Assembly (NCBI RefSeq): GCF_964204645.1 | Contig: NC_134027.1 | Location: 13,238,485 to 13,302,484, forward strand | Direction of reading: 5' to 3' | Length of the DNA stretch: 64,000 nucleotides | Source: Tubulanus polymorphus | Lineage: Eukaryota; Animalia; Nemertea | Shown: one piece after another, positions 2,316-64,000 of the stretch | Position numbering within the stretch: position 1 is the first letter of the stretch | Layout: every line of letters begins with the position of its first letter | The notes under the pieces: generated by a model | Seen by the model: only the letters and a program-made list of their open reading frames with translations | What the model was told of the DNA's origin: nothing | Databases searched by the model: none | Made by a program: the position numbers and the translations under genes

Positions 2316-2319
2316 AAAT

Positions 2320-2337: not shown

Positions 2338-2519
2338 AATAAATGCGCCATCTACGTCAGAACTACCTATGTTCTAAATGGTCATGCTCAGTACGTTTAG
2401 GTATACTCATGCTTACATACTCCTTTTATCCTTTACAGTCCCTTCCCTAAGGTAGTAAGTCTGTCATTCCTTTGCATTATCTAATGGTTTGATTTTTCTT
2501 GTATTAGAATTCCGTTGCT

Positions 2520-7318: not shown

Positions 7319-7346
7319 CTCTTGATCCTTTCTTTTGTCTTCGCAG

Positions 7347-7785: not shown

Positions 7786-7942
7786 ATGCTGCCTTTAATA
7801 AAATAATAGTAATTCCGTATTCTTCTTCTGAGGTATTATCCGTCTTTAACGTTCGACTAAATTTGGAAATCTGCTGATCACCTCTCCTTGAGGAAATTTT
7901 GTTGCTATGTTGTTCGACCTTGTTCGGTCTGACAGGGGGTCG

Positions 7943-10266
7943 TGTAACAAAATTTCATTTCTCAACACAGATACCTCTATCCCCTTGTTTATTAGCGACC
8001 GTACAGAAGATACATTTCCCCTTACTCCAACTCCGGCGATAACCCGCGGCTCCTTAGTCCCGAAATTGTTCCCGGTGGTAAATAGTGCCGCCGCCGTATT
8101 TATCTCGCCTTTTACACACGAAATAATTATCGCAAGCTATCATGTACGATACCGTTTGAAAGAGGATTATAAAGTCTTGACTCGGTGAAAGCATCTACTA
8201 ATGTCATCGTTTTTAGGCGACACGAGTTGTAGTTTGGTAGATGAACCGATTTCGCCGGTTTGTTTACTTCCGGTCCGGCCACATGGCCCGCTCGATAAGC
8301 GGGAGAGTTAAAGTTTCTACGAAGACGTCTTGTTACTGTCACCATAACATATCACCTTAGTATTTAGTCACAGAAATTAAGTTCTTAGATAATTATCATT
8401 ATTACAAACCTAGAAGATGATTTCGGCACCTTCGTGTCTTAAAACTAACGAGTATTCGACGGTTAAACCGGCGATCTCGAACGCAGTCACCCATGACGGC
8501 AGCCTTTCGGGACCTCACTTGACTTAACGACCGAACTATCTAATACGAATTTCATATCATCAGAAAGTACAAGTTCCAAGCTTTTTAATGGTATATTACT
8601 TCGATAAGAAGACAACGTAGTTCAGCAGCAAAGCGGCTCGGAAGAATCCTAGGAAGCACATCCGACAGGGCGGCCATTGTTGAGCGACCAGTGAAGCGAC
8701 GCGGAGTGGAGATGCAACACGTCGGAGTCGGCAATATCAGAACATAAGGCGCGCAGTTTTCTCTTTCAGTCAGTTACTCAGAGAACGTCTTTTTAAGATG
8801 TAAGTCGGTCCGGGGACAGCGCCGCCTGTCAGCGTTGCGGGTCTTGTGCCCGTTCGTCTCTGTTCCTTCTTTCTGAGTTAAAATTAAGGGCCTTAGGCCC
8901 ACAGAATCCCCCTTACTGTAAATACGTTACTAGTCTTGAGCATTGTTCCTTGTTAAATATTAAGCTACGGCAAAATCATAGTACGATTTCCTTACTTATG
9001 GCCATAAGCCATTGGGCATTACGTTCACCGTCCATACTTATGTATTATTGACGGGCCCTGTGTTTCTCGTTTGTCCTTAGGAACGTCGTACTATAATCCG
9101 TTAATACTTATATATTAAGTACGGATTCTTGATACTAGGTCTTGGGTTCTTGTGCTGATTCCTCCCCATTCATACTAAAGTATATAGAGACGGGTTTGAC
9201 CATTATTTGCGCTTATAGCATTATTAAACTATTATTCTTCCTTCGTGTATGTGTGATGTAGGCCCTTAAGGCCAGCTTTTATGCGTGTATCTTAAAGTTT
9301 CGATAAATTTTATATAGGTAACCCTTATTGTGTTATAATGTTCGCGGTCTTTATGTTCGTTGTATAAGTTTGAAGCGTAACAGCAAGTGTCAATCGCATT
9401 ATCTTTTCCCTTTGTAAGTATGTAAGCATTTGTGGAGTATGAACCTGTCTTGTATTTGAGCATGACATATGTCAGTTTCCGGTAGATAAATAAAAGCTGC
9501 TGTCGCAGCACGTAATGGTATTAACGATTTAGTAATAGTATGTTGGGTAGTAAAACCGTTGACTTGGTCGGAGCGTCCATGGTCTGTATAGAGGCTTACT
9601 CTCGGAAATGGTAGAGTCCAGCGGAACGTAGTGCAATCCCGTTCGGGTGACGGGCGGTTTCTGTTTATTCCGCTATCCAATTTAGGCTCAAGCGAGGAAA
9701 TTCCACGTCGGGGGTGGGTGACGTGGTGTGTGATACGGTCGATTCAGGTTCATGTATAGCTACGAAGTCGTATGTTATTGGGTGAACAGAAGGGTGCGCA
9801 TCGCTATCTGTAGGTTCTAACATAGGGTTGGGCCCGATCCTTAGTTCCCGGAGGATAGTTTTCGAATCGACCCAGTCATTACGTTCCTGGATCTATCAGC
9901 AATCTACACCCGGGGTTGCGGGAATTGCTTACTCGTGTGTTAGGTCGAGTTAAGCCTGAGAGTCATTTATTATTCTACACACAAACATAACCTCCTGTGG
10001 TGGTCGTAGACCCCTTCATAAACATCTTTCCCGTTGTTTACGCGACGCAGGCGGACCCTTTGTAGCGGCGCCATTTTACATACATCGATTACATAAGAAC
10101 ACATTTACATATATACACTCTGAGGACATATAAGAGGATCACGCTACCGCTATGATCGACCCTGGTGTGAGTGAGTGCACACGCTCGTCCGGTAAGTATG
10201 TTCAGGCCCTATGTGGATGAAGAGACATGCTAGAATTTTTATTTATTCGAACTACGAAACGCTACA
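7943..10266 (+). repeat. 3' LTR (2324 bp)
   Basis: tgtaacaaaatttc...gaaacgctaca, preceded by gacagggggtcg. Confidence 0.93.
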
Positions 10267-32369: not shown

Positions 32370-32808
32370 GTACAACCTTGGCCTTTGGCTTCAATCACCA
32401 GTAAAAAGGAGTTCCTTCCTCGCCTCTCCACCAACCGACAAACTTGCGACAAACACAATATCTTATAATAACTATCAAATATTTATTCATCAACCAGCTA
32501 TGTTACCGCCATTCGCGGAATCAATACGACCCACATCATGAGATCAAACCCACAACCAGAACATAAATGAGAGGGCGCCACAGCCTGGACTGTCGTTCCA
32601 GAAAACAAGAGACTACTCACCAAATGTCATTTATGAATGTCTGTCACATACTCCCCAGAGCCGTAAAATATCGTCCTTGATATTTCAAAGTGTATCTGAA
32701 CAAACTGTACACGAACTGGGACAGCATAATAAGAAGTATAAAATGTCAAGGCCAACAACAACTGATTTCAACAGTCAACCACATGATACAATAAACGATG
32801 TGACAACA
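32370..32808 (-). repeat. Probable 3' LTR of the second Gypsy
   Basis: Minus strand aaaaaaggggagggaacg followed by TGTTGTCACA; aataaa on the minus strand near 32482. Confidence 0.5.
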
Positions 32809-32881
32809 CGTTCCCTCCCCTTTTTTGAATAGTTTTTTTTCTTTTATTTTTTTTATATCACATTGCATATACCAAACGAGA

Positions 32882-35800
32882 TTACATGTTACATTCTATT
32901 CTATACCAGTCCGGATCAGTAAGCGCATCTAACCATTTAGGATTCTCTAAAACCTCCGGAATTTTTGCATATTCCAGAAACAATTCAATCTTCCTACGAT
33001 CCGTTTGCATGTTAAACTTTAGAAATTCTCCCGAATGCTGCCAAGCTGGGGGTCGTCTCGTCCGCGGTCGTGGCACAAGACGCTCCTCCGAACTCGGACT
33101 CGGCTTGTCAACATCCAGTGATGTTGGAACAGAGGATGAACTAACTGGCACGCTATCCACAGACAAAGGGCTCAACGGAGGAGTGTCCGCGTTAATCAAA
33201 AATGGATGCTCCACAGAATCGATTGTTTCATCAGCTCCCGGTGATTCCGGAACAGGAGACATATCCGATCGCACAATTTCCTCAGAAATTGGAGCTGGAG
33301 AAACTCTCTCATTAGAACTTCGAGATAACACGGTGTCCGCACCCGCATTCTCAGACTCAACGACAGGAGGTTCCTCCGCAGTTTCCACATCGTGTGAGAC
33401 AAGTACCCAGTCTTCCTCGTCGGACCTATCGCCTGCTACTTCGACAACTACTTCCTCCGGCATATTAGTATTACCGAAAACAAATTTCTCTGGAGTAACT
33501 GGATTTAGGTTTGCTTCCTTTCCTTGGAATGATTCCTCACTGTCACGCAAAGGAGTAGCCAAAGGTAATAACTTATTCCTATGCAGAATCCTCCTACCTC
33601 CACCTTCCATTCTTTTTACCTCGTAAACAGGCACATCTCCAGTTACCTTGTTTTCCACGATATAAGGTACCGATTCCCAGCGGTCAGCTTATTTATGCCG
33701 TTCCCTGAATCCTTCACGTTTGACCAACACCATATCACCAGGCGTTAACACTGCACTCTTAGCTCTTCTGTCATACAACTCTTTCCATCTATCCCCTTGC
33801 CTAGTCAAGTGATCTGCTGCCATATTCCATGCCACTTCAAATTGATTTTCCATCTGCTTCACATACACTGTAGTCAACGTCACGCTTTCTTTATTTCCCC
33901 AACCAAATTTCTGATCAACTGACGGTCTAGGTCTTCTTCCGATCATTAGATAGAATGGCTCAAATCCTGTCGACTCGTGGGGTGTGCAATTATACGCGTA
34001 CACCAATGCGTTAATATGCCTCCGCCAGTTTCTCTTTTCCTCGGGCGGAAAACTACCCAGTAGTCGAATCGACCTACTATGAAACCTTTCTACAGCACCA
34101 TTGCCTGCAGGGTGATACGGTGTAGTTCGGGTTTTCCTCGCATTTTCAACTCGCATAACTCCTTGATCACACGACTTTCGAAGGCTGGACCCTGATCCGA
34201 ATGAAGCTGAACAGGGGCTCCAAATTTCAGCACCACTTCGTTGAATAAACACTTAGCCAACGTTCTAGCTGTCTCATTCTTAGTGGGAATAGCCATCGCA
34301 AACTTCGTGAAATAATCGGTCATAACAAGTACCTTTTCGAAGCATTGACTCAGCTCCAATGTTAAGAAATCAATACAAAGTAACTCCATAGGGTACGACG
34401 TCTCGATACTGACCAACGGGGCAACTTATGTAGGCGTAGAAGCGCACACACAGCGCTTACAACTTTTCACAAATTCCTCGACATCGGATTTCATTCCAGG
34501 CCAATAACAATCTTCGTCTCAATAAAGCCAACGTTTTGCCCCAACCGATCGTGCAAACAGTCAAGCATCTCCGCTCTCTCTGAATAGGGCAACCACACTT
34601 TCAGCTCTGACACTCCGTTTTCAATAACTCTGCGGTACAAAACATCATCCAGAAGTTCAAGCGACTTAAAACCCCGGCAGATCCCGTACTCCGATGGTTT
34701 AGCTGGCCGGAATCTTGTCTTGGTCCTCAAGTCGGGTCCCGCTCCTGCAATTTTCGCATGTCCACCTCTGCTACCCCTCCGGCTTACGTCACAGGGACTG
34801 ACGGATTTACGGTACATATTGCTACAAAGACATCAGCAGTGATCCGATTTACCGGACTACGGCTCAGCGCGTCTGCATCTCGCATATTAGTGCCACTATG
34901 ATATTCGAGTTCCAAATCGTACACAGATAAAGCCTGTAGCCAGCGATGTCCCGCGGCATCCAGTTTCGCAGATTTCAGCACATAAGACATGGGGTTCGAA
35001 TCAGTATGGACACAACATATGTTAGCATATAAGTAATCGTGGAACTTTTCCGTCGCCGCCCATTTCAGAGCCAGAAACTCAAGTTTGTGCGCAGGATACA
35101 TCTTCTCTGAAGTATTCAATCCTCTACTTGCGTACGCGATTACCTTCTTAATTCCCTTTTCATCTGTTTGGTACAAAATCGCGCCTAATCCATCATGAGC
35201 TGCATCTGTATGAAGCTCGAAGGGTCGATTAAAGTCTGCGAACCCTAATATGGGTCTAGACGTCAACATCTCCTTCAACCTCGTGAATGCGTTTTCTTCA
35301 TTCTGTCCCCACTGTACCTCGATCCTCCGTTCCGCAGTTTTACGTTTCCCCTTGAGATTCGTGACTCCCGATAACAATTTCGTTAACGGAGCAGCTACCC
35401 TGGCATAGTCCTTTATAAACTGTCTGTAATAGCCCGAAAATCCCAAGAATTGTCGCACTACAGTTACGGTTCTAGGTGCCGGCCAATCCTTCACGGCACT
35501 TAATTTCGCTTGATCGGGTTCAACTCCCTTTTCAGAGATCCTGTGCCCTAGCTAAACCATTGCTGACCGTAAAAACTCACATTTTGAGGGTTTCAACTTC
35601 AGTCCCGCAGCAGCTAGACGATCCAACACATGCTCCAACCGCTCAACATGCCCCTCGAATGTGTCCGAAAAAATAAGTATGTCATCGATGAAAACCAGAC
35701 ATTCACGGAGGTTTAAATCCACAAGAGTCCTTTCCATTAAGTGCTGGAACGTTGACGGTGCGTTTGTAAGTCCGAAGGGCATTACATTAAACTCCCAAAA

Positions 35801-36840
35801 TCCGTAACCCGCCCCGACATTGAAGGCAGTTTTTGGCTTATCCTCCTCCTTCACCTCGACTTGCCAATATCCGGCCTCCGGGTCAAGAGTAATGAAATGC
35901 TTGGCACCGGCAACAATTTCAACTAATTCATCCGCGCGAGGAAGAGTCTGCCGATCTTTCACGGTCCTCCGATTGAGGGTCCGGTAATCCATACAAAATC
36001 GAAGACCGCCATCCTTTTTCCGGACGAGAACTACCGGCGATGACCATGAACTAAAAGATGGACGGATGACTCCTGTGGACGCCATCATGTTAAGGTTATC
36101 CCTCACCTCGTTCACCATGGATGGAGGAACTCGTCGATACCTCTCCTTAAACGGTACATTATCAGTCAAATTGATCTCATGTCGAATCGCGGAAGCACGT
36201 CCAGTATCCTCATCAGCGTCCGAAAAGATTCCTTTATGTTTCCGCAGAACGTCTTTTAACCGTAGAAGCTGCCCCGAAGTCGTCTCGCAACTTTGCCAGT
36301 TGAAAAAGTCCAAAAATTTATCATCTTCTCCTGACCCTATTGCGCCACAATGTCGTTGCAGAGGATTCACACTATTCATCAGCTTCGGCTCCACTCGACG
36401 AACACCCTCAACGCTACACACCGGTGACCGAGCAAACATCGTTTCGCTAATCCAACAGCTCCCTTGTCATCATGCAAATGCTGTTACACGTTAGTGCCCA
36501 ACACCACAGGACCCGACTCACTGTTACTAGTATCTTCAACCACCAAAACCAAAACATCGAGTATCTGGTGCTCCACTACCAACGTAACTTCTGCACACCC
36601 ATGATACGGTAGTTCAGTTCCACCAGCGGTTTTCACATCCAAAAAATCATTGACAGGAAACAGCTGCGTATCCACGAGTGAACTAAAGAAACTCTTTGAG
36701 ACCGTCGTAACTTGGGCTCCAGTATCAATCAGTGCTCGACAGAATGATTATTGACGACAATATCAGATTCATTAGCTGGACCCACTAACGACGACCGGCC
36801 TGGCCCATGGGTCCGTGGCCAGGCTCCGATCGGTTTCCCG
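32882..36840 (-). pseudogene. pol: Gypsy Pol, multiple frameshifts and stops
   Basis: ALIDTGAQ protease (~36735), RT MPFGLTNAPSTFQ...FIDD, RNase H TDAAHDGLGA, integrase HSDQG...TTPYHPAGNG, long low-complexity C-terminal tail. Confidence 0.9.
36778..36839 (-). promoter_or_regulatory. -1 frameshift site with pseudoknot
   Basis: Minus strand G GGA AAC directly after the CCHC knuckle; stem gcctggcc/ggccaggc; loop ggaccca pairs with downstream tgggtcc. Confidence 0.75.
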
Positions 36841-37134
36841 CCCGCTGACAATCTCACTGAAAATGGTCCAACCCGCCGCAGTTAAAACATCTTCTGCGAC
36901 GGCTACATGGAACTGGACGGTTATTATAACCTCGGCCGCGTATTGCTCCGCCTCTATCAATTCCTCGGCCCCGTGACTGCGCGATGTCACCTTTATCATG
37001 GTAATCTGAGGTTCTTTCAATATTCAATGCTGTTATCTCCCCCTTTTCAGTTCATTACCGGTTTCCACCAAGGATTCAACGGTCTTGACGAGTTGGCCAG
37101 AACCTTCAGCGTACATCTGGTGTTGCCTAGGCTC
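36830..37134 (-). pseudogene. gag: Gag C-terminal part with CCHC knuckle
   Basis: RG-rich stretch followed by CFNCGGLDHFQ*DC. Confidence 0.75.
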
Positions 37135-45056: not shown

Positions 45057-47223
45057 CGGTTCCTGAACTTCGCTGAAAAAGCTGAAACACTGAAACGCTG
45101 AATCGCTGAAATTAAAACGCTGATATTTCAGGGAATTTCCGAAAAACGCCGAAATTTCAGGGAATTCCCGAAAAACGCTGAAATCGTGCTAGGGACCGAC
45201 AATACACGTTTTGAAATTCTTTCCGGGCCGGTGTCCGCTGCCGAGTCCTGAACCGTCTTTTAGTCTCCACCTTCGGTTACAGAGACATGCATGGGCAGTA
45301 TGTGTGGAGTATACTTCTAGAGGGCCACTTGTTGGACAAATTAATTCGCTTGAAATCCGGATTTTTAATGCATACAGGCAGCATAATGAGGAAAACCCAT
45401 TCACAAACCGTGCAAGCCAACTTAAACACTATGCTCAATATTCCCTGCAAGACGCAAAATATCTTATTTGAACGTTCATGTATAAAACATGAAGTATGGG
45501 TCATACTGATTAGCGTCAACCAATTAATCTAAATCGGGCGAACCATTCAACAACTGTGAATAATTTATTTGCTGTGGCGTGATAATAATTATTTTTTTTT
45601 TGAAGAAATGACATACCAACTGTTAGGAAAATGTACCGATTCTTATTTTTAGACTACTACTGAATCTATAAAAGGAGGAGTCATAGACAAAGTTGATTTG
45701 CTTAGCTGGAGACACTTCTTGTCAAGTACTTCATCTCAAGTACTGGGTGTTTTGTAAGTTTAATTTCAGTATTTATTTATTAAGTGCTGTTCCCTCGAAC
45801 CGCAGTGCTTTCAAACTAGGCCCACCCCATAGGCTATATAGTCCAGGGTGTATTAGCCACTATTCTTTTATATCCTACTAAAATGCACCTTTTTCTATTT
45901 TTAGATTCAGGCTTAGAATGTGCAAATTCTTTGAGATACAGAGAAATCAGATGGCACCAGTAAACTTCAACTGCGAAATTTGCAGCAGGATAGCTGAACG
46001 ACACAATTTTTAAAAATAAGAAGGCTATTCGAATGCTATTTCAATAATAACTTGATTCAACCAGAGAGAAATAAGTCAATTGTGGATGTACAGTACACGC
46101 ACTTTTCTTCCCTGTTTCCTGGTACCAAATTTTTAGTCTTAAGCTAAGCGATATTCTAAGGTATGCTAGTGGATTTCATTAGAATATGAAGCAATGGAAC
46201 CAGAATTCTAGCCAGAGTTAAGCGAACTATTGATTCTGATATAGCCTAATGTAAGAACTGATTTCCTTTGTGTACTCTTGCAGAATATGTATTATTTCAA
46301 GCTGTTAAATAATATAGTTAGACAAACGTCCAATTATTGGATCTTTCTTGTTGACTCGTTTAATTTTGTGAGTTAAGAGTTCCAGTCAATCCACAATGTG
46401 CAGTGCCTAGCCTTCATCTACACTAAAGCCAAGCCTGTGTATGGGAAAATATCGTTCGACTCCTATAGGCCAGACAAATCAAAGCATGCAATACATTGCA
46501 GATAATAGTCTCCGGCAAGTCGAAAGAGAAAGTAAACCAGGTTTTACCCTATACCCTACCGGGGAACAAAGACACTTAAAGACTCCTTCCTCCTGGTAGA
46601 AATTGTTGAAATATGGCACCCAATCGTAGCAATGCTAAGTACAGTATACTATGACGGTTGAACCTTTATTAACGAATTTCAATGACACCGAAAATAGAAT
46701 CAAAATAATCATTAGTTCCATGCTAGCACTTAATTTGGGTTATCAGGTTCAGCCTAACTGTACTTTCATTCAGCTACTACTTGTATGAGACTTGGCAATG
46801 ATAAGTTGCAAGAAATCACCAAACATAAGAAAAAATATTGTGAATTAATATTACTGTAATTAAGAATTTATTCAATTGAAGTGATAACTTCATTGTTAGA
46901 TCGTACCGGTATATGCACATAAAACTATGGCAAAAAACACATCTAACAATCCACGCAATCCGCAATCGATCAAGTCGATCATGACGACGACCTTAAGGCA
47001 TGTCTTTGTAACCGAAGGAAGAGCATAAAACACGGTTCAGGACTCGTCAGCGGACACCGGCCCAGAATGATTTTCAAAACGTGTATTGTCGGTACCTAGC
47101 ACGATTTCAGCGTTTTTCGGGAATTCCCTGAAATTTCGGCGTTTTTCGGAAATTCCCTGAAATTTCAGCGTTTTTATTTCAGCTTTTCGGTGTTTCAGCT
47201 TTTTCAGCGAAGTTCAGGAACCG
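45057..47223. mobile_element. Non-autonomous DNA transposon with ~230-bp TIRs
   Basis: cggttcctgaacttcgctgaaa...gacatgc mirrored at 46998-47223; internal gctgaaa repeats; no TSD. Confidence 0.85.
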
Positions 47224-47224
47224 T

Positions 47225-50095
47225 TTAGATTCTTATAGATTTCTAGCAAGTTCATTAGATAATTTAGCAAAAAGTTTAGTTGATAATGATTTTGTTATAA
47301 CTCGATATTATTATCCAAATGAACAAGATTTTAAATTATTGAGATATAAAGGTGCAATTCCTTATTCATTTTATAAAACACACAATGATTTTAATGTAAC
47401 AGAATTATTAAAAGATCAATTTTATGATCAATTAAAAGAGGAGTATGTGAAAGGCGAAGTGTTTAATAGAACATTAAATATTCGGAACCATTTTAAGATG
47501 AAAAATCATGGTGAATTAGTTGATTTATATTTAAAAACAGATGTTATGATATTGGCTGACATATTTGAAAAATTTAGAGAAGTTAATTTGAATCATTTTA
47601 ATGTTGATCCTTGTTATTGCTACTCTAGTCCTGGTTTACCCTGGCAATGTGGTTTAAAATACACAAATGTAGAATTAGATTTATTAAAAGAACCAGACAT
47701 GGTTCTATTATTTGAAAAATCAATTAGAGGTGGAATTAGTGGTGTTATGGGAGATAGATATTTTAAAGCAAATGATGAATATAAATTATTATATATTGAC
47801 GCCAATAATTTATATGGTTGGGCAATGATGCAACCTCAACCATACAAAAATTTTATATTAACAGAAGTTGAAAATGGTGATAAAACTGATTGCGCAATTG
47901 CGAGTTTAAAAGATGAAGCACCAATTTGTTATTTCTTTGTAGTTGATTTAGAATATCCTGAAAATATAAAGTTTAAAACAAGAAACTTACCTTATTGCCC
48001 AGAACATTTAACCGTAGATGATAGTTATTTAAGTGAATACCAGAAGAAAATAAAACCGAAAGATCATGTTTTTACAGAAAAATTAATACTTACTCAAAAT
48101 AATAAATACAATTATATTGTTCATTATAGAATGTTAAAATTTTATCAAAAACAAGGAATGAAATTAAAGAAAGTACATAGATATATTGAATTTCAATCGA
48201 AGTGGTTAGAAAAATATATAGATTTCAATACTCAACAGAGAACCATATCAAAAACAGATTTTGAAAAAGATTTCTTCAAATTAATGAATAAAAGTTTTTA
48301 TGGTAAAACATGCGAAAATATTAGAAATAGAAATGATATTGAATTAGTAAATAATTCTGAAAGATTAAGACATTTACAATCAAGTCCTAGACATTTAGGA
48401 AATAAAAGATTTGAAGATTATTAACAGCAGTTAAATTAAAAAGAACGTCAATGAAATTTAATAAACCTATATTCATTGGTTCACCTGTTTTAGAAGTAGA
48501 AAAATTATTAATGTATGATTTTTATTATAATGTTTTACAACCACTTTTTGGGGAAAAGCATATTGAAATATTATATTTTGATTCTGTAACAGCAGACACC
48601 CCAATATCATTAAAATACAATAACCAAATATTAATTAGAAGAATTTCAGAAAAAATTCCAAAACAAAATGAATGTTATATTTCGTATGGTGAAAAAGAAT
48701 TAATACAAATAAATGAATTAATGGATGTTTGGACAAGAAATGGATGGAAAAAATTAAAGAATACTATTAGGCATAAAACAAATAAGAAAATCTATAGAGT
48801 TAGAACTAAATTAGGGTTTGTAGATGTTACAGAAGATCATAGTTTAATTAAACGAAATGGTGATGAAATAAAACCAACTGATATAAAAATTGGGGATGAA
48901 TTATTACATAAAAGATTTTTCCAAAGAATGAATCATATGTCATTTGATGAAATAATTGATAATATTTATAATATAGAACCCGAAACATTAGAAGAAAAAG
49001 AATATTTTATCAAAGGGGTTTTTATGGGAGATGGTTCAGCAGGTGTGTATAATTATGTTAGTGGAACTCAATATTGTTGGTATTTATGTAATCAGGATTT
49101 GAAATTATTAGAATGAATAAAGAAATACTGTGAAGAAGTTTATTCACATAAAACATTTAAAATCATAGATGTTATGAAATCATCACAATGTTATAGAATA
49201 CACGTGAATAATACTAAAGATTTTGCAATTAAATATAATGATGAATTCTATATTCATGCAATAGTGAAAAGTAATACTTCAACTAAAGAAAAGATAGTTC
49301 CAGATTATGTATTAAATGCAAAATATAATTTAAGAAAATAGTTCTTCATTGGATTCTATGCTGCAGATGGCACTAAAAAATTTACAAAACAGAAAACTAT
49401 ATCTTTAACACAAAAAGGAAAAGTTGCTATATCAAGATTAAATATATTATGCAGTTCATTAGGATTTAATATGAATATAGAATTAATTAAATCTAAACCA
49501 AATTGTTTTAATTTAAGGTATACAGAAAAAGATTTAACTGAAGAAGTTAGAGATTTATTCGAAATATATAAACCATCAGATTATGTTTATGATTTATCAA
49601 CTGAAGATGGAGCATTTAACTGTGGATTTCCATTAATAGCCAAAAATACTGACGCCTTCATAATAAAAATCAAGACAAATGACATAACAAAAGACTTAAA
49701 AAAATTAAAACATGATTTTGATTTTAGCAATTATCCTAAAGATCAGGAACTATTTAGCAATGATAATGAAAAGATTCCTGGTAAATGTAAAGATGAATTA
49801 GGGGGTGATGAAATGATTGAATTTGTTGGGATAAGAAGTAAAATGTATAGTTACAGAACAAAAGATCATGAAGCTAAAAAGTTAAAAGGAATAACAAAAC
49901 ATGTGGTTGATAAACATCAAGATTATATAAAGTGTTTATATAACTCAATTGTAATGAAACACAAAATGAATTGTTTAAGATCAGAAGATCACGAGATGTA
50001 CATTAATGAAGTTGAAAAAACTAGTTTGAATCCATTTGATGATAAAAGGCATATTTTAGATGATGGTATAAAAAACATTACCTTATGGTTATTAA
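47225..50095 (+). pseudogene. polB: Protein-primed family B DNA polymerase (5'-truncated, intein-containing)
   Basis: LDSYRFLASSLDNL, YLKTDV, IRGG, YIDANNLYGWAM, KLMNKSFYGK, YFD/TD, FVGIRSKMYSY, NPFDDKR; frameshifts near 48420 and 50075. Confidence 0.92.
48583..49647 (+). mobile_element. Intein with LAGLIDADG homing endonuclease (355 codons, two in-frame stops)
   Basis: YFD|SVTADTP...VTEDH...GVFMGDG...GFYAADG...VYDLST...IAKN|TD in a single frame; stops TGA 49114 and TAG 49339. Confidence 0.92.
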
Positions 50096-50945
50096 AATGG
50101 ATCAATATCATCAAACTCGAAATCACTATTGGTTTCTTCTTTTTCATTTAATTGTTCTTGTATAATTTGTTTAGGTTCTTCCATTTCATTTTTCTCATTT
50201 AAATAAAGTTCTATCTTGTACCACATTTCATCTCGCTCCTTTTGTTTCTTTTTGTTTGTTAATTCGTCAAATGGAATTATAATATCGATGTTTAAATAAT
50301 TTACAATCTTATTTAAAAAGAATTCATAATTAATTGAATCTGTTATTCTATTATCCACATAATATCTCAATATTTGTTTGAATGTTTCTTTTATATTTTC
50401 CATATCTTCTTCTGTTAATTTAGGTTTTTTATAATAATCGTTAAATAATAAATATAAATACATTTTCTTTTCTTGTGTGTTAAATGTTGATGGAATAATT
50501 GTTTTTATTATATCTTTTTTAGTTATTTCACCATTTTTATTTTCTATTATTTTCATTTTTTCAAGCCATTGCTTATATTGTGGTGTATGATCTTCCATAG
50601 AAAATATCTTAGATATTTCATCTAGATATTTTAATTTTGGTTCTATAAGAATATCTCTAGTTTTTTCATCACCCCATAAATTTTTTGCCATCCACATTCA
50701 TTACAAAATATCACAGGACCTTCTTGTCTTAAGTACACATAAATACATTTTGGGCATTTTTTTCTAACATTTCTTAGTAATAGATCTTCATTAAGCTCTT
50801 GGTATTTTCTTACGTTTTCTTTATGTTTCATTGTTCTATTATGTAGATTTGAATTACTTGTTGTAAAAATCAATTTACAATATTTACAATAATATGTTTT
50901 TCTTGTTAATTCATTATATTGTTTTTCTAACTTTTCGACTGTTTC
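50092..50945 (-). pseudogene. Polinton accessory protein with C2H2 finger and C4 ribbon (frameshifted, 5'-truncated)
   Basis: YYCKYCKLIFTTSNSNLHNRTMKH and CPKC...CNEC (50643-50945) overlapping the 201-aa ORF 50092-50697. Confidence 0.55.
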
Positions 50946-50951
50946 TTTATC

Positions 50952-51166
50952 TATAAATTAGAAGATTTAAATGGTGAAGAAGTTGATGGGTATTTTTATG
51001 AAGAAGAATTGAGTTTAACTACTGAAAATCTAGAACAAGAATATAAAATTGAAAAGTATTAAAAACAAAAACTGTTAAAAGAAAAAAATATTCTTTAGTA
51101 AAATGGGTTGGATGGCCAGATAAATTCAATGAATGGATATTATCAAGTAAAATTAAAAATATATAA
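50952..51166 (+). pseudogene. C-terminus of Polinton retroviral-type integrase with chromodomain
   Basis: YKLEDLNGEEVDGYFYEEEL...EYKIEK/LKTK..KKYSLVKWVGWPDKFNEWI; one frameshift. Confidence 0.8.
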
Positions 51167-51366
51167 ATGAATAAGGAATTATTTATATTTGAAACTCATA
51201 ATATGTTAATTTCTGGCGTAACAAATTGTGGAAAAACTTATCTTATATTAAATTTATTAGAAACTGTTTATAAAAACTATTTTGATAATATAGTATTATT
51301 TTGAATAACCATAGAAGCGATAACATTAAAAACCTCATTTTCTAATGAGTAACTACAGTTTATTAA

Positions 51367-51403
51367 CACGAACGTTTTCGGGATCATATCCCCTCATCAG
51401 GTG
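51367..51403 (-). ncRNA. Minimal hammerhead ribozyme (inverted pLTR copy)
   Basis: Reverse complement of 53777-53813. Confidence 0.7.
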
Positions 51404-51534
51404 AAATACAAGTGAATCAAATGATTAAACTACAGGTTTATATACAACATAAGTTACAAAATTACAAGTGCTAAATTCTAAGCTAATTACAAACCAAGTA
51501 TTTAATTACAAACTAATTATTTGAATACATTTAG

Positions 51535-53663
51535 GTGAGAAATTTATGCGAGAAATTGACCTGGATTCAAACAATCATTTGGCTCACTAGACTTAACCAG
51601 AAAGGCAGGAAACTAACTTCGGAAACACAGCAACGTCATGAACGCAAGCTTTTAAACTTGTGGAAAGATCAGCGTCACCCAGCACCGGATTGCTTAATCA
51701 ATAGATCAAATTATCAACTATCCCTAGAAGAAACTGAGATACTACGTTACGGCTTAAAGCATCACATTCTTCCGAAAAATATCAACGAAATCGACCTTAA
51801 ATCACGTATTGAAAAAACTGTTTACCACAAAAATAGGACTATATCTGGCGGCGAACCGAATGTGAATAACTCTTTCCTTGAAAGTATTAGACATGCGACC
51901 ATCTCATTTATCAACAGCGCTAAATCAGTATGTGGCTCGACCTGGAACCGACGTTTCTACCGTACGATTGAAAAACTTCGAAAAAACAAGGACATTAAGA
52001 TCTGCTCATTTGACAAAGGCAACGGCATTGTTATTTTGGACTGTAACGAATATTTCGATAAATTAGATAAAATTGTATTTGATAAAAGTAAATTTACTGA
52101 AATCAAAAATGTGAGAAAGAATCACCCAGTCATATCTAATGAAACCAAAATCTGCGGATTTCTGAGAAAACATGTGAAACAGTATGTAAGTTCAGAAATA
52201 TTTGATTCTATCTACCCAAGCGGTAGCCAACCTGGTAAATTATATGGTTTGTGCAAAGTGCATAAAGATAACTTTCCATTTCGACCCGTTGTATCAATGA
52301 TCGACACTGCTGAATATAACCTGGCCAAATATCTCGATAAAATCATTAAACCACATATACCGTCTAAATTCATGTTAAATAGCACTTGGGAGTTCCTTAA
52401 AAAACTGAAACAATTCGTTTTAAACCTTCTGATATTCTAATAAGTTTTGATGTAGAGTCACTTTTCACTAATGTTCCATTGAAAGAAACCATTGATATAG
52501 TTTCCGATTATATATATGCTTCCGACTCTAAACCTACATATGATCAGGCTACATTCAAAGAATTACTTAAAATCGCAACTTCGGGTTTGTTTATGTACAA
52601 TGATCGTATTTTCAAGCAAGTTGATGGGGTCACCATGGGCAGCCCCTTAGGCCCAACCTTAGCGAACTTTTGTCTTGCCCATCTTGAAAACTTGCTCCTC
52701 TCCAAAACTAATTACAAACCGACATTATACCTGAGATACGTGGACGATATATTCGGCATATTTCGAAATGTATCCAGTTATAGACTATTTTTTGAAGAAT
52801 TGAATCGCCTCCATTCTAACCTTAAATTCACTTTTGAACTAGGTCCTAATCTATTACCTTTTCTCGATACCGAAATACAAATTCCGTTAGAAACCGGAAG
52901 TGACTTTATATCTCGAGTGTACAGGAAAGCTTCCAACACAGGCCTACTTTTGAACTTCAACGCCATGTGTCCGTATAAATGGAAAATAGGACTCATCAAT
53001 ACCATGCTTTTTCGTGCCTACAATATTTGCAGTGATTGGACCATCTTTTCAGAAGAAATCAATTTCTTGAAAAATCTGTTTAAATCTAATGCGTTTCCTA
53101 TTCATGTCATCGATCAATGTATTAATAGATTTTTGAAATCAAAACAGAACTCAGAACCTCAACCGAAACCTGTTGAAGATGGAATTGATCTATTCATTTC
53201 ATTACCGTATATTGGTAACCCGTCAATCCTATTTGCCCGAAAATTAAAATATCTATTTAAAAGGAATTTTGAAATCAACTTGAAATGTGCATTCACTACG
53301 ACCAAAATTAAGAATTTTTTCTCTTTGAAATGTGCTACCCCTAAATCGCTGAAGGCTAAAGTCATATATAAATTTAATTGTTTATGTGATATAAACACTT
53401 CCTATATTGGGAAAACTAAACGACATTTGGCCATCAGGATTAAGGAACACAGATCAAAGACTTCTGCGATTGGACAACATCTCGCAATTTGTCACACTTG
53501 TGATCAGGAATTCAGTAACAACAAATTCAAAATTCTAGACAAAGGTTCATCTGATCTCGACTGTAAAATTAGGGAGGCCCTGTTTATTAAAGCGCAACGA
53601 CCCTCTTTAAATCAACAATTATTTCAAAACGGCTCATCCTTTATTCTAAATGTATTCAAATAA
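51535..53663 (+). pseudogene. Penelope RT and GIY-YIG endonuclease (one frameshift near 52420)
   Basis: DKGNG, LYGLCKVHK, SFDVESLFTNVP, GVTMGSPLGP, YLRYVDD, VIY..SYIGKT.RHL..R..EH, EALFI. Confidence 0.92.
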
Positions 53664-53776
53664 TTAGTTTGTAATTAAATACTTGGTTTGTAATTAGCCT
53701 AGAATTTAGCACTTGTAATTTTGTAACTTATGTTGTATATAAACCTGTAGTTTAATCATTTGATTCACTTGTATTT

Positions 53777-53813
53777 CACCTGATGAGGGGATATGATCCC
53801 GAAAACGTTCGTG
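53777..53813 (+). ncRNA. Minimal hammerhead ribozyme
   Basis: cac CTGATGA g gggat-atg-atccc GAAA acgt TC gtg: conserved core, stem II, palindromic stem III aacgtt. Confidence 0.75.
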
Positions 53814-54386
53814 TTAATAAACTGTAGTTACTCATTAGAAAATGAGGTTTTTAATGTTATCGCTTCTATGGTTATTCGGATATTTGAACTCTCTTCCTAA
53901 GATAGTATTATTTTGTCCAACATATGAATTTAATCAAACTTATGATAGAAATATTACTAGAAATAATAAATTTATTATATTAGATCCTAAAACAGTAAAA
54001 GAAAATTTAGATAATTGTATAAAAATAGCAATTGATATTTATAAAAGATCAAATACATTATTCATTATAGATGATTGTGCAAATTTACATGATGCAAAAA
54101 TTAGAGAGAGTGAGTTATGTTATTTAGCTTTTTCTGGTAGACATTTTGGGATAACAACTTGGGTTTAAATCAAAAATATAATTCAATTGTTAAAGACTTT
54201 AGGGATAATATAAGATTTTTAGTATTATTCTACAATAAAGATAGGATATCGATGAAAAAGGCACTTGAGGAAAATGATATAATTCCACATGATTTACGCA
54301 ATGAATATATGGATAAATTGAAAAATAATAAAAGATCAGAATTACTACTTAGATTACAACACCCATTTAAATATGAATTTATTTAA

Positions 54387-54691: not shown

Positions 54692-55296
54692 ATGGGAGGT
54701 GAAAAGAAAATAAATCTAAAAATGGTGATGTTCCAATTGAAAAAACTTTAGATGATTTAGGAATAACAGAAACAAAATTAACTCCAGATGATGGTGCTTT
54801 AAATAATGTTACAACAAATAATAATTATGAATATTATCTTTATTGTAAACATCAATTAGAAATATTAATAGCATCTGGAAAATGTAAAAATTTTATCGGT
54901 AAAAATTTAACTTATAATGAATTAGATACAATGAAATCAGATGAAATTATTAGATTATTTAAGATTTATGAAACCGCGAGAACAGCTAGAATTAATGACG
55001 CGATATCAGAAAATGTAGTAAAAGGTTATAGTAAATTATGTAATTATATACTACCAATTGAAGATGAAAATAGATTATATTCCGATTTAAAAAATGATTA
55101 TTTAGTTATGACAGAATTAAATAAATGGATTGGATATTTATCATTTCAATTAGGCGGATTTATGACATTATTATCAACTGGGGTTATAACATTTTCAAAT
55201 ATTGAAAGTAAAAATATTTCTATAATAAATGAACAAGGTGGAAGAAGTGAAGGAATTAACTGTGAAGAAAAAACCGAGAACTCAGAAACAAATTGA
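54692..55296 (+). CDS. Polinton hypothetical protein (upstream part frameshifted)
   Basis: Open frame extends upstream of the 121-aa ORF 54931-55296; hydrophobic segment near the C-terminus. Confidence 0.5.
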
Positions 55297-55540
55297 ATGG
55301 TCTCGGCAATTAGGAATTAAATCACAAGAATATGAAAAAGCTGTAAAAGAAAAAATAAGTAATAAAAATGGTGAAAATATTGTTATTTCTACTCCTTCTA
55401 ATAATAGAATATTTGATAAATATCTATATTTTACAGTTGGATTTGTAATTTTATTCATTTTGATTGGGTGTAAGTGGTATAAGAAATCAAATAAAATTCA
55501 TGATATTAATAATTCTGAAACAACTGCTATTAAAAATTAA
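55229..55540 (+). CDS. Polinton small membrane-anchored protein
   Basis: 103 aa; basic KKKPRTQKQIEW N-terminus and TM segment YLYFTVGFVILFILIGC. Confidence 0.5.
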   Translation: MNKVEEVKELTVKKKPRTQKQIEWSRQLGIKSQEYEKAVKEKISNKNGENIVISTPSNNRIFDKYLYFTVGFVILFILIGCKWYKKSNKIHDINNSETTAIKN

Positions 55541-56080: not shown

Positions 56081-56411
56081 TCATAAGGAAAAAAAATTAC
56101 TTGTGGTGATGAGTGGGGATTACTTCCCCTTGTATATAACAAGCACGTATTAACCGTTCTCACCCAAGCCTCACAGCATCTATTTATCCGAGCACAGCTG
56201 ACACGCAATCACTGTACTACAGTAATAGCACACGCGTTAATAACCGTTCTCGGTAGCGACTCACTGTATCGATCTATCCACGCGCAGTTGTTGTTACGCG
56301 CACTCACTGTATACATGTATCACAACGCTGTTGACCGTTCTCGGCCTAGCTGTGATGAGTGGTGTCTCGTACTCTCGTACTCTGGCCTGAAAACGCCATC
56401 TCCTAATTACT

Positions 56412-56810
56412 ACAGTAAAAGAAAATTTAGATAATTGTATTAAAATAGCATTAGATATTTATAAAGGTTCAAATACATTATTCATTATAGATGATTGTGC
56501 TAATTTATATGATTCAAAAGTTAGAGAAAGTGAGTTATGTTATCTAGCTTTCTCTGGGAGACATTTTGGGATAACAACATGGGTTTTAAATCAAAAATAT
56601 AATTCAATTGTGAAAGATTTTAGAGAAAACATTACATTTTTAGTTTTATTCTACAATAGAAATAGAAAATCAATGCAACAATCATTGGAAAAAAATCAAA
56701 TTATATCTACTGAATTACATCATGAATATATGAATAAATCAAAAAGTAATAAAGGTTCAAAATTATTACTGAGACTACAATTTCCATATGAATATAAATT
56801 TATAAAATAA
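56412..56810 (+). pseudogene. Second, paralogous packaging ATPase 3' half
   Basis: TVKENLDNCIKIALDIYKGSNTLFIIDDCAN...SGRHFGITTWVLNQKY; diverged from 53992-54386. Confidence 0.85.
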
Positions 56811-57226
56811 AATCATAATTTGAAATCTTAAAGAATTTGAATGTGTATGAGTGGATGAGTGGATGAATTGGATGAGTGGATGAATTGGATGAGTGTGGAT
56901 GAGTGTAATAATATATAATTTACATATGTTTCTTATTTAAAAAAAACAGTAAGAGTTTGATTCTAAGTCATTTTATTAGTTTTATTAAATATTATTTTAA
57001 TTATTTTAATTAAGCTGTCACACACGCAGTTTTAAAAAGTTTTCAGCGTCTAAATTACCCTACAGCTATCTACGTTTTCCAACAAAGCGGTGTGAAGAAA
57101 ATGTAGCACCTAAGAACGAAGTCGGATAACTCGAATCAGAGCCGGTGAATTGAATTGAATTGATTACCAAACCGTTGATAATGGCGGCGGCTGTTCTCCC
57201 TGGATTTTGCTAAATTTCGCATTTAG

Positions 57227-58372
57227 GTCTGTCTGCAGAGTTTCCAGAACCTGTCATGTCAGGGCCCACGACCTGACATGACAGGTGGGACCTCAGGTGA
57301 CAGGTCGATTCGCTAAAATGAAAATCGTTATGACTGAACCGATGATATTCGATTAGAAGATATGATAGGCGCGGATTTAAAAAAACTTTACTTTTTATAA
57401 CCTTTATATAGTAATAAGTATAATATAAATTGCTAACCATAGATAGAGTTAATCTTAAGTTACCATAAAACAATAATTTTGAAGCGAGACCTCACACGGC
57501 AGCTCGCGCCATTTTGCAGAGCTTCTCGAGACCTGTGGTGACAGGTCTGCATTAAAACTGATGAAATGAAGGAAAACATTAATTTTTATGGTCTCTTTAT
57601 AGTAAAGAGTATAATATAATGGCGACAGGTCTGCATTAAAACTGATATAGATAGAAAAAAAACTTCATGCTTTAAATTGATGAGTTGATTTAAAATCAGT
57701 CTCAATAAAATCAGTCTCTATAGTGCATTCGGCTCTTTTACATGTACATCATAAAGACAATGAATGTAAATAGTGAGACTTCAGGGGCTGGTTCCTCAGT
57801 TGAGATTTAAGTCAAAAAATGGTCTCAAATTTTAAGACTGGTCTTAAGTTGTTAGATTGGTTATAGTACTAAGATGGTCTTAGATTGGTCTTAAGTCTAA
57901 GCCATGACTATGGAACTGGGCCCAGGACTTCAGGACAGTGAGGAGTGTTGCCGAGCTGTGATAGTGAGCAGATAATTTTCAGTGTCTTATTGCGGAAACG
58001 AAATATCAAGACCTCGATTCATCTAGCGAAAATATTCTCTTATAATGTGCTCTTACTTCTACATTAATCAATTCATCTATGCCTGAAACTTATTTTTTCC
58101 CTTTAATACAGAAATAAGTCATAGTTTACACATAAATATTTTCTTCTTATAAATCAACCTTTCAAATGAATTATTTGTCAGAACATTTTCCTTATCGTTA
58201 TTGTTGAATCATTTTCGATATTAACGACGGGTCAGAATATTCATTCAACTCAAAATGTTCTTCCATTCGTCTAGCACATGCCTAGATATTTCGCCGTTTC
58301 GTCAAATACTGTCATGAGTTTGGGTTTTTTCGGGACCTGACATGACAGGTTCTGGAAACTCTGCAGACAGAC
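57227..58372. mobile_element. Non-autonomous TIR element
   Basis: gtctgtctgcagagtttccagaacctgtcatgtcagg / cctgacatgacaggttctggaaactctgcagacagac. Confidence 0.8.
57784..57923. mobile_element. Small Harbinger-like MITE nested in the previous element
   Basis: ggggctggttcc ... ggaactgggccc with internal cttaag/agacc repeats; cag flanks. Confidence 0.45.
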
Positions 58373-58727
58373 ATCAATCAAATTTCGTTGGTAGGCCTGA
58401 TCGCAGGTTGGTTAGAAGTGTCTCTTCTTATTCATCTAATGTAAAAACGTCTTTCATCCGAACCGGTGCTCCGTGGTACCTTGAGAAAGCAATTATTCCC
58501 CATTTAGGGCCGAATTCGCCGAGGCCTTTTAAAATTTTTGGTTAGAGAAGAAGAATTATTATTATTATATTAATACTAAACTTATTAGTAATGTCTGTAT
58601 ATATTTATTATTTGCGCACACCTATACACTGTGTTTCATCAACCAGTTGATGTTGACAGATATCGGAAGAAGAAGAAGAAAAAGAGATTATCTTCATTCG
58701 ATTCAATCTAGTAAAGTAGCCTAGAGA

Positions 58728-61395: not shown

Positions 61396-62369
61396 GTATC
61401 TGCTCTCATGGCTCTGGCAGTTTGATAAGTAACTATGAGGAAGTCTCATTTGATTTCCTTCTGTATGAACAATGTTGTGCACCTCGGCCTATATTGGTAC
61501 ATGTAGGGCTATATGATGATTGACCATCATGAAGAGATCAAAAAGATCGGAAGGGAAAAGGTCTTGTCACCTCTCCCAAAACACAATTTCGACGTGAAAG
61601 TTGTCAGCCATGAAATAGGTAAGTCGTTACTGAGTCCTAGTTATACGCATTTTATACTAGTATAGAAATGACTCCTAGTATTTCCATAGTAGATTGGTAA
61701 TGTGGCTTATTTTGTTATCACAATCAATTACAAAATCGTAGATGGCCACTCACACCATAATTCTACCAATTTCGCTTCTAGATCTTCAGTCGAGTCATCT
61801 GCCGTGCTGAAACTTTGGTGAACGTTTCGAAATACTTGAATTTGAAAGTTTATGACTAATAACGAATGACGCTAACTAGCGGTCATAATTTGTACTATGT
61901 ATATGCGGCCTCTTATTGGCTGGAACCCTTGCGCTCAGTTCCGTCGCGTCGCAGATGAGCTTATGTCGGTTGTGATCGAAAGCAACTGTCCGCCTACCGT
62001 AGGCCTGAGTAGAACATGGGCAACTAGCCGGATATGGCTTGCGACGAGTCGGTAGGCGTCGGGTTGCCGTCACAAGCCGGCTTATGTCGAACCGATAGAG
62101 CAGCAACTGGCGGCCTCTCGTAGGCCGTTAGTTGCCGCTAATCGGCGATAAACCCAGTTGCGTCGGTAGGCGTCGCTTTGCTTGTCGACATAAGTCAGCC
62201 TTTATGAAATCACAATTGAATAGTGTAAATTATTAGCCTGGGATTGACTAGTCTATGAGCTGGGAGTGTATTTGGACAAATTTAACCCACAAAATGAATC
62301 ATCATTTGCCATTTTATGAAAAGTTGACAGGCTGGCCATAGTGCCCCTTGGGGCTCTTGGAATTGTGTA

Positions 62370-64000
62370 TAAATATTAGTTATCAAAAAACAAAGTCAGT
62401 TTATTTGAGATAGCCTAAGTATAGAAACAACTCCTAATATAGATTAAGTCTTTTAATAGTGTATATGTATTAATTATCAAACACCAAAGTCAGTTTACTT
62501 GAGATGAGTATAGAAACAACTCCTACTATAGATTAAGTCTTTTTATAGTGTATAAGTATTAATTATCAAAAACCAAAGTCTGTTTATTTGAGATACGTAT
62601 AGAAACAACTCCTTGATTATCAAAAAACCAACAGTCAGTTTATTTGAGATGAGTATAGAAACAACTCCCTATTTGTTATAAAAAACCAAATAAGTCTATT
62701 TGACATGAGTAGAGTAACGGCTCATACTATAGATTATGCTTTTTATAGTGTATAACTATAGGCCTAAGTCATCAAAAATGAAAATCAGTCTATGTGAGAT
62801 GAGTATAGAAACCATTTGAGATGAGTATATAAAAATGGTCTTTTTCATAGTGCATAATTATTAACCATGAAACACCAAAGTCAGTCTAGTTGAGATATGT
62901 ATAGAAACGACTCCTACTATAGAGTAAACTTTTTCATTGTGTCTATTAGTCATCAAAAACTAAAGTCAGTTTATTTGAGATGAGTATAGAAACAACTACA
63001 ACTTTAGATTAAGCCTCTTTATTGTGTCTATTAGTCATCAAAAACTAAAGTCATTTTATTTGAGATAAGTATAGAAACAACTCCTACTATTGAGTAAGCT
63101 TTTTCATTGTGTCTATTAGTCATCAAAAACTAAAGTCAGTTTATTTGAGATGAGTATAGAAACAACTACAACTATAGATTAAGCCTCATTATTGTGTCTA
63201 TTAGTCATCAAAAACCAAAAGTCAGTTTATTTGAGATTAGTATAGAAGCTTTTTTATAGTGAATAAATATTAGTTATCAAAATCAGCAGTGAGTTTATTT
63301 GAGATATGTATAGAAACAACTCCTACGATAGATTAAGTCTTTTTATAGTGTATAAGTATTAATTATAAAAAGCCATAGTCAGTTTATTTGAGATGAGTAT
63401 AGAAACAACTCCTACTATAGATTAAGCCTTTTTATAGTGTATAACTATTTGTCATCAAAAACCAAATCAGTGTATTTGACATGAGTATAGGAACGACTCT
63501 TTCTATAGATTAAGCTTTATTTATAGTGTATAAATATTAATTATCGAAAACCAACAGTTAGTTTATTTGAGATGAGAATAGAAACAGATACTCCTATAGA
63601 TTAAGCCTCTTTATTGTGTCTATTAGAATCAAAAAACCAAAAGTCAGTTTATTTTAGATTAGTATAGGCCTAGAAACAATTCCTACTATAGAGTAAGCTT
63701 TTCATTGTGTCTATAAGTCGTCAAAAACTTAAGTCAGTTTATTTGAGATGAGTATAGAAACAACTCCTATAGATTAAGCTTGATTATAGTGTTGAATATT
63801 AGTTATCAAAAACCAACAGTCAGTTTATTTAAGATGAGTATAGAAACAACTCCTACTATAGATTAAGTCTTTTTATGGTGTATAAGTATTAATTATCAAA
63901 AACCAAAATCAGTCTATTTGAGATGAGTATAGAAACGACTCCTACTATAGATTAAGCTTTTTTATAGTGTATAAATATTAGTTATCAAAACCAGCAGTCA
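62370..64000. repeat. ~85-90 bp AT-rich satellite array running off the window
   Basis: agtcagtttatttgagatgagtatagaaacaactcctactatagattaag...tcatcaaaaaccaa, roughly 19 copies. Confidence 0.93.

Follow-up and report, generated by a model that had tools for sequence, protein, structure and literature searches.

How does an intein of the kind that lodges in the DNA polymerases of giant viruses come to interrupt the polymerase of a Polinton, a small integrating element with a different class of polymerase, and what has kept it there? The question is raised by a 64-kb stretch of DNA (the window), in which motif C of a family B DNA polymerase of the protein-primed kind (pPolB) is split by an insert of 355 codons at positions 48583 to 49647. 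An original prediction, made from the sequence of the window, had recognised a LAGLIDADG intein in this insert and had pictured its capture from a nucleocytovirus by a Polinton-like virus, followed by endogenisation. The answer developed here is that the insert belongs to one clade of inteins in Polinton polymerases, which likely has a single origin in a giant-virus-type PolB and is likely kept by homing between related Polintons, the window holding a broken member; we regard this reading as probable. It draws on the anatomy of the insert, the clade, the patchy presence of the intein, pairs of filled and empty copies, a tract of altered flanking residues and the occurrence of the intein in a second pPolB class, and from these we infer splicing, cutting, the route of repair, the donor and the direction of transfer.

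An intein in motif C

In the six-frame translation the YFD of motif C ends at 48582 and the TD that completes the motif starts at 49648, with exactly 355 codons, from SVTADTP to AKN, standing in frame between them. The insert has the layout of a class 1 intein with a two-motif LAGLIDADG homing endonuclease domain (48583..49647, on the forward strand, as are all its parts). Its N-terminal splicing region (48583..48915, the end being approximate), delimited by a TIGR01445 match on residues 2-88 and by alignment with PI-PkoII over residues 36-112, opens with Ser1 and holds the block B TEDH at codons 83-86 (48829-48840). The endonuclease region is marked by the two LAGLIDADG helices, GVFMGDG at codons 145-151 (49015-49035) and GFYAADG at codons 257-263 (49351-49371), and by KEKIVP at codons 235-240, which supplies the block-D-type Lys. 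The span between the helices (49015..49371, from profile, model and motifs) encloses both in-frame stops of the insert, at codon 178 (49114-49116) and codon 253 (49339-49341). The C-terminal splicing region (49585..49647, from the PI-PkoII alignment and motifs) contains the block F VYDLST at codons 335-340, a GFPLI signature and the terminal KN, after which Thr follows at +1.

The residues of a class 1 intein, namely Ser1, the block B TxxH, the block F Asp, the terminal Asn and Thr+1, are all present, and the combination of Ser/Cys1, TxxH, two [GA]DG motifs and a terminal Asn arose in none of 100,000 shuffles of the insert. Two profiles exceed their cut-offs, TIGR01445 (intein_Nterm) with 27.1 bits against 24.5 and LAGLIDADG_3 (PF14528) with 29.5 bits against 22.5. 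The sole significant sequence match in the PDB is PI-PkoII, which aligns in blocks B, D/E and F. A structure model built from an eight-row alignment (predicted local distance difference test score 76.9) finds its best fold matches in full endonuclease-bearing inteins, that is 7qsu (E 1e-14), PI-PkoII, PI-PfuI and PI-SceI, with I-DmoI also among the matches, and when it is compared with viral models the giant-virus polymerases rank first. The insert is an intein, as had been predicted.

The polymerase around it is protein-primed, again as predicted. The extein matches PF03175 and groups with pPolBs, not with RNA-primed PolB, and its nearest relative, 83% identical, lacks the intein; of 7,992 candidates scored against the N-extein, 6,734 are relatives at E <= 1e-20. 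Giant-virus PolB, represented by P0012, aligns to the window solely across the intein and a few flanking residues. What survives of the N-extein runs on the forward strand from the second exonuclease motif to motif B (47225..48388; PF03175 44.6 bits; tblastn of residues 728-1118 of P0002), and continues past a frame change to the YFD of motif C (48421..48582; translation and tblastn); the C-extein, likewise on the forward strand, starts at Thr+1 (49648..50079; translation, tblastn and alignment). Homology to the polymerase begins only at 47225, opposite residue 728 in P0002, a relative of 1693 aa; the gene has lost its 5' half. The window copy is therefore dead, since the two stops within the endonuclease region, the upstream change of frame between 48388 and 48421 and the lost 5' half leave no intact precursor possible. 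Inactivation had earlier been put down to the two stops; these are real, and the breakage is wider than they are.

A clade of intact inteins in Polinton polymerases

Is the broken copy a curiosity, or one of a family? A search with the intein returned 161 long proteins, and among the 120 listed there are 10 pPolBs with an insert at the same site, nine of them within the best 10, whose inteins are 42-63% identical to that of the window; the Pol delta of Chloropicon (P0067) was matched in the same search. Shorter proteins gave 30 more matches, the best at 66-74%. There are 13 further full-length pPolB inteins at the same site, all free of stops. Together with the window's, all 14 keep Ser1, TxDH, both DG helices and the Asn, with stops in the window copy only, and 12 of the 14 show the block D Lys pattern.

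The pPolB inteins form one clade in four maximum-likelihood trees, with support of 100/100 in two trees, 100/97 for the splicing regions alone and 100 under a mixture model. Membership of the clade covers those pPolB inteins that were placed in trees; a further 31 proteins tried gave no intein under the boundary patterns used and were not placed. The first fast tree had 79 rows and the next 67, long or near-duplicate rows having been left out, including the long-branch inteins P0085 and P0096, which fell within the pPolB clade in the first fast tree, a placement taken as long-branch attraction.

The clade extends beyond the polymerase class of the window. The pPolB P0007 (1603 aa) does not align with that class (best E 0.28), yet its intein is 48% identical to the window's and lies inside the clade, the only case found of a clade intein in the other class. 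P0007 also carries an insert that we take to be of VSR type. The window's class has, in addition, an endonuclease VII domain of its own and scores 45-66 bits with PF03175 against 111 bits for P0007; by the definition in the accessible part of PMC8502044 these sequence features would probably make the window's class the Beta type and that of P0007 the Alpha type.

Several of the intein-bearing pPolBs come from contigs 0.1-1.0 Mb long and belong to clusters of 41-136 members, many of them fragments, as would be expected of integrated multi-copy elements. No intein-bearing pPolB was seen in the IMG/VR loci (37, and the best 80 of 515) or in the 10 prokaryote-genome loci, and the best 80 of 372 metagenome loci gave one, on a 4.2-kb contig without neighbours. 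None of the IMG/VR, prokaryote-genome and metagenome loci fetched holds a complete intein-bearing Polinton, and a phage collection gave two weak matches only. This clade of intact Polinton polymerase inteins is apparently undescribed.

Filled and empty sites

If the intein were mobile, closely related polymerases should be found with and without it. Among the 120 best matches to the extein the site is filled in three, empty in 86, which read YxD/[TC]D, truncated or altered in 13 and unscorable in 18. The informative cases lie in the cluster of P0003, which has 136 members, of which 40 were read and 15 are listed; seven of those 15 are filled, six are empty and two are too short to reach the site. 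Identity to P0003 is 94-99% in the seven filled and five near-complete empty proteins, and the 10 residues by which filled copies differ from empty ones, out of some 1190 extein positions, all fall between -7 and +44 of the site. Beside it the sequence of the filled copies resembles that of the sister family (HYMD/TDSFVLSV, the slash here and below marking the insertion point). This is the pattern expected if the intein had been copied, together with some flank, from a related element.

Such a pattern, in which filled and empty alleles occur with co-conversion of the flanks, was found at the protein level in the P0003 cluster only. In the cluster of P0005 one filled and one empty copy have identical flanks of 45 and 70 residues, with no flank tract, which fits homing between twins or exact loss alike. 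On a 54-row extein tree the presence of the intein changes 10 times, with at least eight of the changes forced by well-supported branches. The +1 residue also differs with the state of the site, being Cys in 35 of 86 empty sites, and Thr in 44 and Cys in none of 45 filled ones. The Cys of empty alleles could be an escape from the nuclease or an outcome of co-conversion, and it is not counted as resistance because co-conversion would overwrite that codon. On these comparisons the intein likely spreads between related Polintons by homing, and the spread among Polinton copies that had been foreseen for it has found sequence support in the relatives.

Origin of the intein

From where did the Polintons obtain it? 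The nearest inteins outside Polintons are those of giant-virus PolBs, at 36-42% identity, and the sister group of the pPolB clade consists of 21 viral PolB inteins with a common C-terminal G[FY]xLI signature (support of 87/92, 97/91 and 96/99, and 89 in the Shimodaira-Hasegawa-like approximate likelihood ratio test, SH-aLRT, under the mixture model). When 15 neighbour genome identifiers were looked up in supplement 1 of PMC8575486, eight were present, all of them Imitervirales (seven IM_01 and one IM_07). The PolB of Megavirus is a farther match, at 26%. In each of the four trees the pPolB inteins and their sister group lie within a wider set of viral PolB inteins, and the approximately unbiased (AU) test rejects a placement of the pPolB inteins outside the viral ones (p-AU 0.010) when Topo II inteins and two nearer archaeal-labelled inteins serve as reference. 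RNA-primed PolBs, besides, have the site occupied far more frequently and with greater diversity (515 relatives in IMG/VR; 90 of 145 new representatives). Transfer from a giant virus to a Polinton appears, from these sequence relationships, likely.

The same inteins have crossed other boundaries. Two DNA polymerases of T4-type phages, P0373 and P0374 (phrog_262, 547 and 262 bits), carry a LAGLIDADG intein at Y[GS]D/TD, and in the mixture-model tree both fall inside the Imitervirales-type subgroup, the intein having apparently jumped between a lineage of eukaryotic giant viruses and a phage gene. Eight Topo II proteins (P0008, P0062, P0065, P0070, P0072, P0075, P0079 and P0083) have inteins at a TDxD-like acidic motif (DQD/TD), which group as a single clade within the PolB-type inteins; P0008 seems to contain several inteins. 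Viral-type PolB inteins are carried, besides, by four contigs from prokaryote bins (L038-L041), of which L039 and L040, with Bacteroidales labels and a strong giant-virus PolB match, are probably mis-binned viral DNA.

A model for splicing and homing

From established intein chemistry, an intact precursor would splice by an acyl shift at Ser1, attack by Thr+1 and cyclisation of the terminal Asn, rejoining the YxDTD catalytic motif. The site lies in the active centre, and for this reason only exact loss of the intein would be tolerable. Once freed, the endonuclease would cleave motif C alleles that lack the intein, and their repair on a filled template would then transfer it with a short stretch of flank; the partners could be genomes replicating in one co-infected cell or copies already integrated.

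The first jump would have been of a different nature. In 22 loci the mean number of bases common to pPolB and RNA-primed PolB is 5.8 and 5.6 of the nine on either side of the site, and 8-9 of 21 farther out. This is too few for ordinary homing, and the first jump was probably ectopic, by way of the few motif C codons that the two classes have in common. Homing across polymerase classes, as first proposed, is hardly possible in its ordinary form.

A more far-reaching proposal would be an active homing intein in animal germ lines, derived from giant viruses, which converts Polinton copies singly, has jumped between both pPolB classes and belongs to a subgroup that got into T4-type phage polymerases too, by way of the one motif common to all family B polymerases. 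This we put forward tentatively, as a possibility that falls somewhat short of being favoured.

Alternative explanations

Several points weigh against the reading of a giant-virus-derived clade kept by homing. The Pfam Intein_splicing profile (PF14890) gives the window intein 26.6 bits (E 6e-6), below its cut-off of 35.8, and is above cut-off in the relative P0003; the profile check proposed for the insert was thus passed for TIGR01445 and LAGLIDADG_3 and failed here. The penultimate His is replaced by Lys in the window intein (His in 10, Lys in three and Ser in one of the 14 pPolB inteins); a KN ending is usual among the giant-virus neighbour inteins, whose polymerases must work. The flank tract of the P0003 cluster was read from proteins only, and the copies may come from different genomes. 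The rows of the extein tree were hand-chosen and the presence label is only weakly more clustered on it than in shuffles (23-28 of 500 were as low), so the tree shows patchiness only. The sister link to the viral inteins is unstarred in two of the four trees (87/92; SH-aLRT 89). A comparable constraint survives when the sole outgroup is the distant archaeal one (p-AU 0.594; here the score of the constrained tree was 5.2 log units better than that of the quick free tree), and it was after this result that the test with nearer references was chosen. A nucleocytovirus source is accordingly likely and short of proven, with the formal test of direction giving 0.01 or 0.59 by outgroup. The depth of divergence of intein and extein, taken up below, belongs with these points.

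Might the hosts of the window and of the long contigs be protists, algae or fungi? The case would then extend the viral inteins already known from non-animal nuclei. In keeping with this, the 137 window open reading frames (ORFs) scanned against Pfam yielded no host gene, only mobile-element proteins, and divergent-type pPolBs occur outside animals too (accessible part of PMC8502044). However, a gene-free 64 kb populated by Gypsy-type, Penelope-like, satellite and inverted-repeat elements agrees with a large genome rich in repeats, and an intein-bearing pPolB (P0010) on a 2.5-kb contig labelled as from a symbiont of the clam Ctena is most simply host DNA in a symbiont bin. Non-animal hosts are unlikely, if by no means far-fetched, and the animal setting, judged from the repeat landscape, is a fair guess.

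The original prediction saw in the intein a sign of virophage-like contact, and one may go on to suppose a Polinton lineage that depends on a giant virus or co-replicates with it. The transfer does require both genomes in one cell, and the nearest relatives lie in Imitervirales. This order is known to host virophages. However, the phage polymerases P0373 and P0374 hold the same subgroup, which shows that these inteins cross polymerase classes without any virophage-like relation; with related inteins in Topo II as well, jumps of this kind need none. An intein-bearing pPolB was in none of the 117 viral and prokaryote-genome loci fetched and in one of 80 metagenome loci, and one old event is uninformative on the present life cycle. 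The contact does not follow from the intein, and a virophage-like way of life is improbable.

The transfer might also have run the other way, or from a third source, with a Polinton, a phage or an unsampled virus as donor to the Imitervirales group. The pPolB clade stands beside the 21 signature-sharing inteins as their sister and not within them, and a basal place for it survives the AU test with the distant outgroup. Against this, the pair sits among further viral PolB inteins in each of the four trees, nearer references reject the basal place, and occupation of the site is far commoner and more diverse in RNA-primed PolBs; a reversed or third-party route is for us rather doubtful.

Could the intein instead have been gained once, in a Polinton ancestor, and have descended vertically with many exact losses and little or no present homing? 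Between deep pPolB branches the identities of intein and N-extein are the same, 44-51% each, which also fits such descent, and the intein tree largely tracks the extein clades; the identical filled and empty flanks of the P0005 cluster would result from exact loss too. Loss fails, however, to account for foreign residues on either side of the site in filled P0003-type copies, for the intein in the unalignable P0007 class and for the retention of both catalytic helices in 14 of 14. Purely vertical descent is distinctly improbable. Since intein and extein are equally diverged across deep branches, the intein is better seen as an old resident, moving mostly among close kin, and in place of the single capture later endogenised that had been suggested there is an old resident Polinton lineage.

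That the locus is an assembly chimera, or a Polinton contaminated by a giant-virus fragment, has almost nothing to commend it, as the seamless in-frame junctions are common to 13 other records, the P0002 alignment runs through both of them at 61%, GC is even (0.245 in N-extein and intein, 0.266 in the C-extein, with flanks at 0.36-0.40) and host-type retro- and DNA elements are inserted in the same Polinton.

The Polinton remnant and the rest of the window

The element around the polymerase is a truncated Polinton-type remnant of about 9.6 kb, with two Polinton hallmarks, the pPolB and an A32-type packaging ATPase. Beyond the C-extein come two ORFs on the reverse strand (50092..50957), one of 201 aa without a good match in the family search and one of 104 aa with a U1-type zinc finger, and then, on the forward strand, a chromodomain fragment (51053..51163; PF00385, E 6.7e-5, below cut-off). 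Polinton integrases end in a chromodomain. A packaging-ATPase-like gene follows (51167..54168, forward; from translation and repeat comparison), with the Walker A motif GVTNCGKT in its first piece; its second piece matches an A32 fragment at 56412 with 90% identity over 185 nt. It is split by a retroelement on the forward strand with reverse transcriptase and GIY-YIG domains and 232-nt perfectly inverted ends (51303..53877; domains and repeats), which we take from its layout to be Penelope-like; its frames are almost open, and its insertion into the ATPase gene is apparently recent. Farther on, two AT-rich forward ORFs of 197 and 103 aa (54703..55540) have no family match in Pfam or PHROGs, and a second, partial A32-type packaging ATPase lies at 56391..56810 (forward; PF04665, 30.1 bits). 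The 3' part of the ATPase is thus duplicated, at 53992-54382 and 56412-56803, 2.4 kb apart and with 77-90% identity. The 197-aa ORF has no usable Atlas match, and PHROGs named none of the ORFs without a family.

Apart from the chromodomain fragment, neither capsid, protease nor integrase core was found in the window, several ORFs being without a family match, and no pair of inverted arms encloses the remnant, whose ends appear lost. Gene-less inverted-repeat elements flank it on both sides (45057-47223 and 57221-58378). The left one, of 2.2 kb and adjoining the truncated polymerase (45057..47223, no strand assigned), has terminal inverted repeats with arms of 46 nt (96% complementary) and 206 nt (91%) and internal 29-nt repeats, and its scanned ORFs gave no Pfam match; its position coincides with the lost 5' half of the polymerase. 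CpG is depleted in the remnant at 47224-51302 (observed/expected 0.28-0.56, the intein 0.33), with values of 0.85-1.0 in the flanks and 0.64 in the related contig L118. Elsewhere the window holds two Gypsy-type retroelements and a satellite array of 85/89 bp (748-8174, 32800-37000 and 62368-63990).

Significance

The element type and its insertion site are already known; nothing in the literature searched covers the protein-primed host class, the dispersal of filled and empty copies or the likely animal setting. What is said here and below of published work refers to the accessible parts of the papers cited. A survey of eukaryotic inteins lists none in Metazoa and 67 in viral DNA polymerases, and the metazoan absence has been cited as a rationale for anti-intein drugs (PMC5784728). 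A full intein family in Polintons would be an exception to this absence if the hosts are animals, though one that sits in proviral and not in host genes. Inteins of invertebrate iridoviruses are known (PMC5784728, PMC549080), so inteins in animal-infecting viruses are not in themselves new. The suggestion that intein invasions gave rise to nuclease inserts in Polinton pPolBs (PMC11071308) would gain a concrete case with splice junctions. Further, the intein may serve as a dated sign that Polintons met giant viruses, the presence of filled and empty copies in one family makes homing between dispersed chromosomal elements directly testable, and a nuclease that targets the catalytic motif of the pPolB could act in competition between Polintons.

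Comparison with known systems

No published intein with Hint and LAGLIDADG domains in a protein-primed PolB was found, in a search that left outside subscription journals, Repbase reports, InBase and bioRxiv supplements; several sources mention inteins only in general (PMC12220804, PMC13768754, PMC3671162, PMC5718144, PMC4104785 and 10.1101/299784). The inteins of archaeal PolBs and VMAs (PI-PkoII, PI-PfuI, TliVMA and PI-SceI) share the two-domain fold, and differ in being only 10-18% identical in structural alignments and a far outgroup in trees. Known Polintons, Mavericks and adintoviruses, with their Alpha and Beta PolBs (PMC8502044), share with the window the pPolB, the A32-type ATPase, the chromodomain fragment and low GC, whereas the window remnant is without capsid, protease and integrase core; the accessible text and supplement of that paper contain no mention of intein, LAGLIDADG or homing. 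Closer in kind are the HNH and VSR nuclease inserts of Polinton pPolBs (PMC10748475), which likewise place nuclease domains in the polymerase, but for which no Hint domain, splice junctions or LAGLIDADG are described; LAGLIDADG and homing do not occur in the accessible text of that paper, nor intein, LAGLIDADG or Hint in one supplement file.

Virus-derived polymerase inteins in the nuclear DNA of eukaryotes have precedents in PMC10710043, where viral-like DNA polymerases with inteins are described on nuclear scaffolds of Klebsormidium, Tetrabaena and a labyrinthulomycete, together with inteins of Chloropicon Pol delta and of Anaeramoeba, and where non-allelic intein jumps are ascribed to relaxed viral endonucleases. 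These cases differ from the present one in their algal and protist hosts, and neither Polintons, Mavericks nor a protein-primed polymerase are named in the parts and two supplement files of that paper that were searched. The nearest counterparts remain the PolB inteins of Nucleocytoviricota at YGD/TD (PMC549080, PMC5784728), which have the same motif C site, the same Ser1, TxxH, Asn and Thr+1, the LAGLIDADG domain and a length of about 350 aa, that of Mimivirus being 351 aa (PMC549080). In contrast to these, the Polinton inteins are hosted by the protein-primed PolB of a small integrating element, with no useful likeness in sequence to RNA-primed PolB beyond a few codons, and they occur in many copies on contigs of chromosomal length, with filled and empty sites side by side.

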